Shown here piece by piece: positions 3,060-39,603 of a stretch of 64,000 nucleotides of DNA. Position 1 is the first letter of the stretch, and every line of letters begins with the position of its first letter. The translations under genes and the position numbers were made by a program. The notes under the pieces are model-generated. The model was not told where the DNA came from. It saw nothing but the letters and a program-made list of their open reading frames with translations, and made no database searches. Source of the DNA: Eledone cirrhosa (lineage: Eukaryota); NCBI GenBank assembly GCA_964016885.1, contig OZ024756.1:27218001-27282000 (forward strand). Reading direction: 5' to 3'.

Positions 3060-3690
3060 TAACGAAGGAAATGTGGTAAGGAACCAGGTGGACCATAACG
3101 CACCAAAGTACTCAATACTTGAGGTAGTAGAGTGGGTAATAGGAACCAGTAAGACCCCGACAGCTGAGCTCAAGCCGTTTCGACGGCTAATTCTGGACTA
3201 AATGAAAATTTATCCTGGTATTTAAATAGCCGATCTTCTCAAGGGGTAATTCCATATATGGTCAAAGTGATTGTCAAAAATCAGTAGTAATTCTGTGGTT
3301 GCAAATTAGTAGGGGAGATGGTGGCTAAACCTGCCAGTAGGAGAAAGAGGGGAGGGGGTGGAGTAGACCCAATCAAGCGTTGGTAGTGCCAGCTACAGCT
3401 GGGCATGAGGTCAAAGAAGATACAGGGGAGGGGGAGGGGGAGGGGGAGGAAGTCGGAACGGTAGGTAGAACAATGGGGGGTAGAAATAGGAAAGAAAAAA
3501 TACTGAGAGTGAAGAAAAGCAAATAAGTGTAAAGGAAAAAAGTAAAGTAAATTAAATTCTACGACCTAGGTGTCAGGCTATTGTTAGGCGAGAATAAAAT
3601 AAAGAAAGAAAGAAAGAAGTAAATAAATAAATAAATAAATAAGGAAATAAGTAAGAGAACTAGGTGGGACGGATAAGGCAAGGACCCTTA
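3060..3690 (-). mobile_element. Longest copy of family F (TA)n-embedded cassette (putative Penelope-like pseudo-LTR remnant)
   Basis: Shares its 3' end (...gtattgagtactttggtgcgttatggtccacctggttccttaccacatttccttcgtTA) with copies at 19641-19791, 35124-35322, 41731-41865, 47115-47292, 52136-52227, 53339-53536, 62773-62920 and 63562-63775; flanked by (TA)n. Confidence 0.7.
3154..3247 (-). ncRNA. Type I hammerhead with U3:A8 core and extended stem II, family F
   Basis: Reverse complement: acccc TTGAGAA ga(t)cggcta...inner hairpin...tagccgtc GAAA cggct tgagctc agctg TC ggggt. Confidence 0.78.
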
Positions 3691-3755
3691 TATATATATA
3701 TATATATATATATATGAGGTGTGAGAAAAACCACAAACCTTTCATCTCAATTCTA

Positions 3756-3791
3756 CTTTTGAAAAGCAGAACAACCGCGAAACCGGTAAAG
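3756..3791 (+). ncRNA. Minimal hammerhead with U3:A8 core, family E
   Basis: ctt TTGAAAA gcag aacaa ccgc GAAA ccgg TA aag; lies in a ~205 bp cassette (3720-3924) repeated at 39531-39743. Confidence 0.65.
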
Positions 3792-4024
3792 GAAACAAAT
3801 AAATATATATTTAAAAAAAAAAGACTCCAGTTGCATTTTCGATTTGATCTTTTTTCCTTATACTTTCACTCGTGTAGGACACCTCGGTTATTTTTCATTT
3901 TGTAAACAAAACCTCACTTTCTAATATATATACATATATAAAAGGTAAACAGAAATAATAACACAATCGGTACAGTATATGGGAGGAATATATTAGGTTA
4001 ACGCTTGACATAGCAGGAAGACGG

Positions 4025-4060
4025 TCTTAACGTTTCGGACTGTAGTCCTTCATCAGAAGA
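4025..4060 (-). ncRNA. Minimal hammerhead motif, family D
   Basis: Reverse complement: tctt CTGATGA a ggac taca gtcc GAAA cg TT aaga; palindromic AACGTT stem III. Confidence 0.78.
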
Positions 4061-36600: not shown

Positions 36601-38577
36601 AACGTTCCTGTGGTTTATGAAGACAGTACTTGGTTAAGGGTAACTTTCGAGATCTAAAGCCTAAAGTCTGTCTGAAGCCAGATGGTTCAATATGGCCGGT
36701 ACTAATCCCGGTTTCATGGCATGAAGCGACTGAGAGTACAAGACCCCTCTCTCCTGGACAGGGTTCCAGTCCATCGCAGGGTTAAACCCTCCAGCTATTG
36801 CTAGTACTCATTTTTATCTGAGTATACTGGAACAGCGTGAAATGAAGTATTTTGCTCAAGAAAACAATACGTAACCCAGCGCAGGAATCGAACCCATGAC
36901 ATTATGATCATAAGTCCAACACTCTTACCACTAGGCCATGCGAGCTTTCGATTTCGATATACGAGGTTATAAACTTGTAGGTTCCTTCGTACTTGGCTTT
37001 TAATATGGTTTGTCCCACTATGGTCTATGCTTTTCGTCCAAATAACTGCTCTATTTTTATTATTTTTATTATTGCGACAACAACAATTTCATCTCTCTCA
37101 ATTTTATTCGCTATTCTAATTGTTTTTTTATTTTCGTACTTACAAATTTGAGCAAGAGAAGTATAAAAAGTTATTTAGCTGCTTGTATCTTCATGTACGT
37201 ATCATATATTGTGTCGTGACAAACACTCTATGAACACACCAGACGTTTTGCCACCAGACGTTTTGCCACCAGACGTTTTGCCACTTATATTCACAAACAA
37301 CATAAAACATTAAATGATATTCAACTCATCATAATATAATGACTAATATAATCTAAATATAGAATGAACAGTAAGCTGACACCGAACACAGATAATGATC
37401 TTGCAACACACTAATTAGACATTTTAACAAATTATTTAATTCACCACGAAGTGTCGTTTAAGGCAATCCAAGTAGAGGTTATGAGTATTCTGTATCGAGG
37501 ATAGTTCTAACGTTCGGCGTTGTTTGACTCAACAAGAAGTTAACTTAGTTGTGGTGTTCGGGTAGCCGATTCCAGACAGCTCCTAGGTAAGCGGTTTCTG
37601 GAGTATTATTAGGATTGTTCAAATCCCGCCGAGGTTCACTTTGCCTTTCATCCTTACGGGGTCGATAAAATAAAGTACCAGTAATGTACTGGGTAATGTG
37701 TGGCCTTGTGGCAAAAGTAGAAACAATTATTAATAATTAGTATTTTGAGAATTAGGTTGGCGTAAACTGTAATGAAAATCGAGTGCCGCGGCACACTGCG
37801 GGTAGCGGTTTTTAGACACACCAGACTAATGAAACATTTGTTAATACTTGGAATAACAGTACCAGTTACGTATTGAAGTCGATTTAATCACCTTCCCCCT
37901 TACCCAACAGTTCTGGCCTTGTGCCAATGTTAGAAAGAAAGAATCATTACTATGTATATAAACTGAAGAGGTTACGAATTGACCGAGTCGTTAGAACGTC
38001 GTATGGAGTAATTTTTGGTATTTGTTCCGACTCTCTACTCCTTGAGTTCAAATCTCGCCGAGGTCAACTTTGCCATTTCATCCATTTAAGGTTGATAACA
38101 AAATATACCAGTCTAGTACTGGGGTCGGTTCTTCCTGAATATCTCTTTCTTTCTCTCTCACTATCTATCCTTCTCATTACAATTGCAACTACCTATAAAT
38201 GTATGAATTTGCTCTTTATCATTCCTGCGTCAATAAAACACCCACCGCTGGTGTGCTGAAGTCTATACAATTGCCTAAAACCAGATCCTTTACAAATATA
38301 TGGTTTTATTGACATTGTCGGTGAAAGAAACTTATATTTATTATTTATTTTAAGCTAAATGTACTTCTGACATTTGCACCTATCCGACTTACAAACAGTA
38401 TTCACACACCAATGTCAGTTATTTAATCAAGATATCTCAACTTATTTTCCTTGTTTGAAACATTTCAGGGTTGGGTAATTTGAAGACCAATGTCGGCTGA
38501 TTATGTATGTATGTATGTATGTATGTATGTATGTATGTATGTATGTATGTATGTATGTATGTATGTATGTATATACA

Positions 38578-39153
38578 GTCTTCTTCTTCTTCTTCTTCTT
38601 CTTCTTCTTCTTCTTCTTCTTCTTCTTCTTCTTCTTCTTCTTCTTCTTCTTCTTCTTCTTCTTCTTCTTCTTCTTCTTCTTCTTCTTCATCGCTTACTTA
38701 TTCCCGAGAGAGTCGTGGCGCCATAGTCTTCAAACACTCCTCCCAGCAGGTCCTGTCAGAAGCAAACGACTCAACTGATCCAGCTGGATAACATCCATGA
38801 GCCAAGCTCATGGATGTTATCCAACCATCTTGCTCAGGGTCTACCCCTGGGTCTCTTACCGGTTGGTTTTGCCCGTAAAATCTGTCCAGTGATTCTTTCC
38901 TGAGACATTCTAACCGCATGCCCCATAGTATCGGAGCTGTGATATCTCAATTTGGAGAAGTAGTGACTCTACCTGGAGTGACTCTCTGATCTCCGAGCTA
39001 CGCACTCTATCGAGTAAAGTTACTCCAAAGACCCTTCGGAGGAATCCCATTTCAGCCACTTGAATTCTCGATCGTACTCTTTCGGTCATTACCCAAGATT
39101 CATGACCATAGGTGGGGGTTGGCACAAATAGCGAATTGAAGATAGTAAGACAC
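38578..39153 (-). mobile_element. RTE 3' fragment with (GAA)n tail
   Basis: IFNSLFVPTPTYGHESWVMT...IQVAEMGFLRRVFGVTLLDRVRSSEIRESL...QLRYYG, then GKRPRGRP in another frame; (TTC)n at 38580-38688 is its tail. Confidence 0.88.
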
Positions 39154-39565
39154 ACGTGTTCATTGGGAAAATAAAAATAGTAAAAGTAATTTTACAGTCG
39201 TAAGAAACTCCCAGGAGAGCTAGACAGTAGAAGGTCTTCACAGAAGAAATACCCCTCAAGCAAATGTTTCGGCTCTTAACTTTTATATCTCTATATCTAT
39301 ATCTATATATATATCTATATATATATATAGTGGTAAGAAAATCTCAGGAGAACTAGGCAGCAGAAGTTCATCAGAAAAGAAACCCCACCTCAAGCAAGTG
39401 TTTCGGCCTCGTAGAGTCACATTAGTAAAGTCACTGAATAACTGACGATGTTTATCAAGCACTACAACCCCACTTCCTTCACGAGATATATATAAACACA
39501 CACACACACACACATATATATATATATATATGTGAGAAAAACCACAGACCCTCCATCTCAACTCA

Positions 39566-39603
39566 CCTTTTGAAAAGCAGAAGAACTGCGAAACCGGTAA
39601 AGG
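39566..39603 (+). ncRNA. Minimal hammerhead with U3:A8 core, family E
   Basis: cctt TTGAAAA gcag aagaa ctgc GAAA ccgg TA aagg; stems I and II perfect, palindromic ACCGGT stem III. Confidence 0.8.

Follow-up and report, generated by a model that had tools for sequence, protein, structure and literature searches.

U3:A8 hammerhead motifs of Penelope-like and retrozyme-like elements in Eledone cirrhosa, and the history of core pair 3:8 in one lineage

Natural covariation of hammerhead core positions 3 and 8 to U3-A8 was published in 2011 (Perreault et al., PMC3088659), and for Penelope-like elements (PLEs) a type I U3-A8 motif has been described within the pseudo-long terminal repeats (pLTRs) of the Cercyon elements of Schistosoma mansoni, with about 1,300 matches there (Cervera and de la Pena 2014, PMC4209133); statements on published systems throughout refer to the parts of each paper that are drawn on here. 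We describe U3:A8 hammerhead motifs in a stretch of 64,000 nucleotides from Eledone cirrhosa (contig OZ024756.1, positions 27,218,001 to 27,282,000, forward strand; hereafter the window), which lies on C17 of a 3.0-Gb microsatellite-rich genome. An earlier note on this DNA had read the double change to U3:A8 in three families, here called A, B and C, as a sign of selection for function rather than of decay. The core itself is already known, and the present families add new hosts and clades only; what is new is that the lineage of family A passed through a mismatched core, the 3:8 pair not being kept.

The Cercyon elements are alike in their palindromic stem III, in occurring mostly as solo or inverted copies and in their predicted action as dimers, but here the elements are Hydra-clade and Neptune/Nematis-type PLEs, families A and B have a long loop 2 and a bulged stem II, and propagated C3·A8, U3·G8 and U4A subfamilies are present, of which the Cercyon account reports none in the parts used. 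Perreault et al. describe the same compensatory change, and U10.1·U11.1 variants too, from scattered examples without the lineage history or mismatched intermediate found here. The Hydra clade of PLEs (Craig et al. 2021, PMC8557442) resembles family A in its RWK-like motif, DKT, CxCX5C linker, C-terminal GIY-YIG domain, (TA)n targets and pLTR hammerhead, but its hammerheads are canonical according to that paper, whereas that of family A is not, and the core of its lineage has moved between U:A, C·A and U·G; the same paper calls the function of hammerheads in PLEs unclear. In the PAc Poseidon element of Anolis (Frangieh et al. 2024, PMC11167929) reverse transcription starts internally, downstream of the hammerhead, which yields a pair of 3' end points; most templates there are uncut RNA, and insertion in vitro is normal for mutants of the hammerhead. 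Those mutants were engineered, while here natural core mutants have spread in a genome. In the satellite RNA of tobacco ringspot virus (sTRSV) only a G:C swap rescued changes at 3:8 (PMC9901934). No account of high-copy C3·A8, U3·G8 or U4A PLE subfamilies was found in the literature searched, outside which lie the supplements of PMC4209133 and PMC3088659, File S2 of PMC8557442 and Lunse et al. 2017, which may list them.

The U3:A8 motifs and the elements that carry them

Strict and loose structure scans both detected three U3:A8 type I hammerhead motifs in the window, which are listed here with the elements in which they lie.

3154..3247, minus strand: family A type I hammerhead motif (U3 at 3242, A8 at 3237; predicted cut after 3159)
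33611..33698, minus strand: family B type I hammerhead motif (U3 at 33693, A8 at 33688)
39566..39603, plus strand: family C minimal type I hammerhead motif (U3 at 39570, A8 at 39575)
3056..3692, minus strand: 5'-truncated pLTR copy of family A, flanked by (TA)n runs, with 97% identity to a 3,542-bp tandem unit at another locus (L121)
33536..34072, minus strand: family B copy comprising the greater part of a 591-bp non-coding tandem unit, flanked by (TA)n-rich runs, with 100% identity to array units elsewhere
39531..39742, plus strand: family C 3' stub (pLTR), flanked by (TA)n runs; parent open reading frame (ORF) upstream of the same motif at loci L495 and L031
3716..3922, plus strand: further family C stub, in whose motif (about 3755-3793) stems I and II have decayed

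The junction, core positions 3-9, GAAA and the UH site are all present in the three detected motifs. That of family A has a UUGAGAA core, a UC site, a stem I of 5 bp, a bulged stem II with a long loop and a 4-5 bp stem III whose loop is palindromic; that of family B has a UUGAUAA core, a UC site, a 5-bp stem I, a bulged stem II and an 8-nt palindromic stem III; and that of family C has a UUGAAAA core, a UA site, stems I and II of 4 bp and a 4-nt palindrome. The earlier note had all stems in place in these and also in a family C copy at 3756-3791(+), which holds for the three but not for the fourth, where stem I is just 3 bp and stem II has a mismatch; neither scan detected this decayed copy and its minimum-energy fold is not a hammerhead. 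A Watson-Crick 3:8 pair (U3:A8) is present in every window copy. The strict scan gave 0 U3:A8 matches across 10 block-shuffled windows and the loose scan 0.23 per shuffle (30 shuffles), and reversed genome patterns, used as a backward control, gave 0 matches. No hammerhead was among the best 150 of 463 Rfam matches for the window, nor in any of 25 matches on 2600-4130, though three canonical motifs are present there, so that the miss in that region is not specific to U3:A8. Outside the core there is no detectable similarity among A, B and C, which were rightly called dissimilar.

Genome-wide, U3:A8 is the norm of each family and not a sporadic mutation, and a C3:G8 consensus, the alternative that had been named, was found in none of them (these counts are of pattern matches including inverted and tandem partners, not of insertions). 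Young family A has 2,249 matches and family B 6,117, with U3:A8 in 99 of the first 100 listed in each case; off-norm cores in B come to 20 non-U3 matches (11 in the control) and 17 non-A8, and 29 of 30 copies read among the 631 matches to older B subfamilies were U3:A8. For family C the pair is present in 11,360 of 11,473 matches, 69 lacking U3 (39 C, 16 G and 14 A, all with A8), 44 lacking A8 and none being C3:G8, and a looser pattern gave 129 non-U3 matches, with A8 in all of the first 100 listed. Homogeneity of this kind in a family results from its recent descent from a master element and cannot be taken as a sign of selection.

Family A is, judged by a motif signature that matches PMC8557442, a Hydra-clade PLE. 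The 3,542-bp tandem unit in L121 carries an intact 718-aa ORF, a single frame joining a reverse transcriptase (YRDD) to a C-terminal GIY-YIG-like endonuclease domain, with RWR at 36, DKT at 116, CxCx5C at 571, CxxC at 669 and CxH at 697, and the element has tandem pLTRs, inverted 5'-truncated copies and (TA)n targets. Its protein has 2,157 homologues and gave nothing in Pfam or PDB sequence searches, and a DNA search with the repeat yielded no candidates, probably as its words are too common. Assignment to Neptune was considered and dropped for Hydra. Inside an element at locus L122 (3227-6757) a 55-bp segment of the family A ORF is repeated about 65 times in an array, and at L286 short tandem repeats of 224 bp are built from the family A motif region, possibly a newborn retrozyme-like unit.

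Family C would likewise be the pLTR of a PLE, of Neptune/Nematis type, the link between ORF and motif coming from two loci only. Its copies are mostly short stubs with inversions, and the two loci, L495 and L031, have 1,298 bp in common upstream; in L495 a broken ORF about 1 kb upstream of the motif has GLKF, DKG, a CX4CxxC linker and GIY-YIG. The parent protein matches Pfam GIY-YIG (PF01541, E=1.8e-7), and open frames of 775 aa for it are present in the genome. PLE fragments adjoining C copies at two further loci (L058 and L125) were rejected as the parent, being unrelated neighbours.

Family B is retrozyme-like, being non-coding and tandem with one hammerhead in each unit, in arrays of up to 6 units of 591 bp (at L126), many of them 100% identical. 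Metazoan non-LTR retrozymes (PMC7229834; bioRxiv 10.64898/2026.07.22.740005) are alike in these respects and in the type I fold, but their units are reported to be of 170-400 nt, and B differs further in its PLE-type motif with U3:A8 and in inverted ends like those of PLEs. No holder of B RNA was listed. A link of B to Hydra families with 719-aa or 714-aa ORFs was not significant (z of 1.3 and 0.4).

As A and C belong to different PLE clades, at least two of the origins of U3:A8 were likely independent, which is also supported by 77 metagenomic Hydra loci, where 29 have an intact sense-strand C3:G8 motif, none U3:A8 and 48 showed none. Three other Hydra families in this genome are C3:G8. At L259 (a 758-aa Hydra family) and L058 the stem II of C3:G8 motifs also opens with U·U, and at L107 (3-770) lies the 3' terminus of a further abundant PLE, which has a CX4CxxC linker together with a canonical C3:G8 motif.

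Loss and return of the 3:8 pair in lineage A

The rest of lineage A was found by freeing position 10.2 in the search pattern, which gave 3,577 further U3:A8 matches and 1,828 C3 matches, of which 1,796 are C3·A8, as against about 5,800 U3:A8 matches in the lineage as a whole. The flanks are in register, which means that C3 is a substitution and does not come from the loss of U3. In contigs from an outside DNA sample the U-to-C change stood at 24% and 25% of depth in two runs of the one sample, two other runs barely covering the core site. In one old subfamily all 14 matches are U3·G8, and a second pair of U·G copies groups separately from it in trees. Purine or C/U mismatches at 3:8 are scattered singles, and only C·A and U·G became subfamilies.

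Trees were based on the 3'-terminal 800 nt of the ORF in copies whose linked core could be read, together with 2 outgroups, first with 44 rows and then with 47, after 8 rows were added and 5 single-mutant rows dropped. The ORF tree forms a ladder from old U:A copies through successive starred C·A nodes to U:A copies with the same base at 10.2, and then to the youngest U:A clade, which is the window's own family and has an A-U pair at 10.2. A clade of C3 alone, holding the 14 C3 rows together, was rejected (approximately unbiased test, p=0.00011). The rare C3:G8 copies of the lineage (7/82) fall among the C·A rows and look like single mutants. The old U3·G8 subfamily, a candidate for the step from C3:G8 to U3:A8, lies inside the U:A rows in three trees and is basal (support 70/97) in one; the outgroup branch is long and the root of lineage A varies. 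The majority ORFs of the C·A subfamilies differ at 26 synonymous and 6 non-synonymous codons, whereas synonymous to non-synonymous ratios for private mutations were 31:73, 45:57 and 57:134, which means that the C·A master elements kept an ORF under purifying selection.

The 3:8 pair was thus not kept in lineage A, which went from U:A to C·A and back to U:A. Selection for the pair, as proposed in the earlier note, fails in this lineage, with its 1,796 C3·A8 matches and its U3·G8 subfamilies, and so does the proposed double change from C3:G8, as the present U3:A8 of family A came by a single change from C3·A8. A pair that looks compensated in present-day copies may thus have originated, and may have persisted, without strict selection. 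A sister Hydra family with a 713-aa ORF, seen at loci L242, L244, L245 and L260, has in both pLTRs a hammerhead-shaped motif with U4A and U10.1·U11.1, and with 19,616 genome matches (A4 in all 100 of those listed) it is the most abundant family counted; its stem III differs from that of lineage A. The genome holds an ordered natural series in one lineage (U3:A8, C3·A8, U3:A8 again, with U3·G8 side branches) and a U4A sister family, each tied to its own ORF, and searches based on the core undercount such motifs.

Template, fold and rival explanations

The ends of A inserts bear upon whether cut RNA is needed. In 0.94 Mb that had not been picked for its content of family A, 70 pieces of the A lineage extend beyond the cut site, of which 53 begin upstream of it, 4 within 3 nt and 13 downstream; of the upstream starts 7 have the whole core, 41 lie in stem II or loop 2 and 5 between G12 and C17. 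Contig depth drops about 25-fold within loop 2 and not at the cut site, and inserts without the 5' core are about 10 times commoner than those with it. Inserts that span the cut site can only derive from RNA that was uncut or had been re-ligated, so the template for A inserts is likely uncut RNA, in agreement with the PAc element (PMC11167929). The 5' ends and inversion joints of A-lineage stubs (in the window, for example, 53339-53528, 35120-35322 and 63558-63775) are concentrated towards the 3' side of loop 2, where stem II begins, a stretch of the loop that is invariant across subfamilies and may be a stall or template-switch point for the reverse transcriptase.

All three families lie in (TA)n with a PLE-style inverted, 5'-truncated layout. 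We consider it probable that their motifs are the terminal-repeat hammerheads of two PLE clades and one non-coding tandem element, predicted to be weak or conditional self-cleavers, in which the fold and the dimer palindrome have been selected more than the 3:8 pair. The PLE protein would prime at (TA)n, start reverse transcription downstream of the hammerhead and copy across the cut site, for which uncut (or re-ligated) RNA would be needed; slow cleavage would then cost little, so that U:A, C·A, U·G and U4A cores could all become masters. Cleavage, where it occurs, may take place in a two-copy fold formed through the stem III palindrome and trim tandem transcripts, in family B possibly making circles, and the fold and palindrome could be kept for such occasional dimer cleavage or as a binding signal. 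The spread of elements with a mismatched pair makes it likely that these elements can jump without strong self-cutting. Rather more tentatively, it is possible that an autonomous PLE lineage transposed for long with a dead or near-dead C3·A8 core and later regained the pair, and that the U4A sister does so today; if true, this would be genomic proof, in the form of a dated natural mutant series, that PLE self-cleavage is dispensable in vivo and the hammerhead fold is not.

The fold itself appears to be conserved. Across 158 A-lineage copies there are no subfamily-level variants in GAAA, the UC site or stem I, nor at G12-A14, U16.1 and H17 (where the GAAA filter biases the result), changes in stems II and III are mostly G-C to G·U, and loop 2 and the flanks vary. 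A column tally of motif against loop 2 and flanks gave 2/27 against 31/74 (p=0.0007), or 30/73 on a recount and 4/30 with closing pairs, and gives rough support. The palindromic loop of stem III is the same across A subfamilies. In 20 B copies 95.9% of cells are paired, with two-sided changes in 5 of 30 pairs, the palindrome included, where an A-U to G-C swap is seen in 4 copies (0/500 shuffles, a figure inflated by the relatedness of these copies). Co-folding predicts double hammerheads for A (-61.9 vs -45.4 kcal/mol), B (-57.3 vs -43.6) and C (-22.5 vs -15.0).

Several points weigh against selection having acted on fold and palindrome more than on the pair. In families B and C no mismatched core ever became fixed, and lineage A regained U3:A8 and afterwards acquired A-U at 10.2, both of which fit selection for the pair. 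The lineage A patterns fixed U4, G5, A6 and A9 and part-filtered GAAA, so the constancy of these positions is not unbiased, and part of loop 2 is as invariant across A subfamilies as the stems. The co-fold energies stand without a shuffle control and monomer fold z-scores are unremarkable (-0.3 to -1.5). The parent element of B was not found, no ORF travelling with B being present in 70 loci.

The same behaviour of B, C and the youngest A subfamilies favours the view of the earlier note, that efficient self-cleavage is required and selection on 3:8 strict, the C3·A8 core being active through a protonated C·A wobble or through the PLE protein. The restriction of mismatched subfamilies to the wobble-type states C·A and U·G would also fit, as would the protein assistance reported for the PAc hammerhead (PMC11167929). 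However, single changes at 3 or 8 gave low activity in sTRSV (PMC9901934), C3G or G8C abolished PAc cleavage (PMC11167929), the most abundant family counted has U4A and most A inserts span the cut site, and we regard strict selection as unlikely.

Rescue in trans, whereby C3·A8 transcripts pair through the common palindrome with contemporary U3:A8 transcripts whose core cuts both, appears highly improbable. It agrees with the identity of the palindromic loop across subfamilies, with the predicted dimer and with the similar ages of a U:A subfamily (A3) and a C·A subfamily (A5), whose mean pairwise distances are 0.048 and 0.052, but it requires that both RNAs be expressed together and find each other at low concentration, a monomer is enough for stem III of A to form, and the U4A family with its different stem III is left unexplained.

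That cleavage is irrelevant, the fold being a protein-binding or replication signal, the core drifting and the return of U3 being a chance C-to-T change in an AT-rich genome, is very doubtful: it draws on the four non-canonical core states at high copy number, the tenfold excess of A inserts without the 5' core and insertion in vitro that needs no cleavage (PMC11167929), but the entire core is retained in C and, through diverged subfamilies, in B, the 29 metagenomic Hydra loci have an intact C3:G8 motif, and in lineage A no subfamily departs from the rest at G12-A14, U16.1 or H17, subject to the filter bias given above.

Other features of the window

Further stubs of the A and B lineages lie in the window, none of those of A having core positions 3-9.

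53339..53528, plus strand: A-lineage stub that starts within loop 2 and has an inverted partner
35120-35322, 63558-63775, 47117-47294, 19641-19795, 62773-62909, 41790-41866 and 52132-52217: similar A-lineage stubs
51707..52082, minus strand: older B-lineage stub with an inversion, without the 5' core
31443-31586, plus strand: another older B-lineage stub

The window also has 10 canonical C3:G8 motifs from two other families, which the earlier note did not mention. Seven are of type I with an AT-rich stem I and a 6-nt palindrome, and like motifs recur at other loci; the other three are minimal.

1520-1584(+), 2690-2754(-), 2843-2908(+), 10621-10687(-), 22316-22380(+), 22690-22754(-) and 22794-22852(+): canonical C3:G8 type I motifs
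4025-4060(-), 44487-44522(+) and 56532-56567(-): minimal canonical motifs, each with a palindrome of 2 nt and an additional A 5' of stem II

CUGANGA-like words in other repeats, at 39330-39490(-) and 6380-6560(-), had no complete junction in the scans and are possibly decayed motifs. Long near-perfect inverted repeats at 21056-21178, 48065-48196, 54168-54289 and 10864-10967 have miRNA-like hairpin scores below the Rfam thresholds and are likely to be inverted retroelement stubs, and a tRNA-like match at 695-766(-), which at 34.5 bits exceeds the gathering score, is possibly the head of a short interspersed nuclear element.

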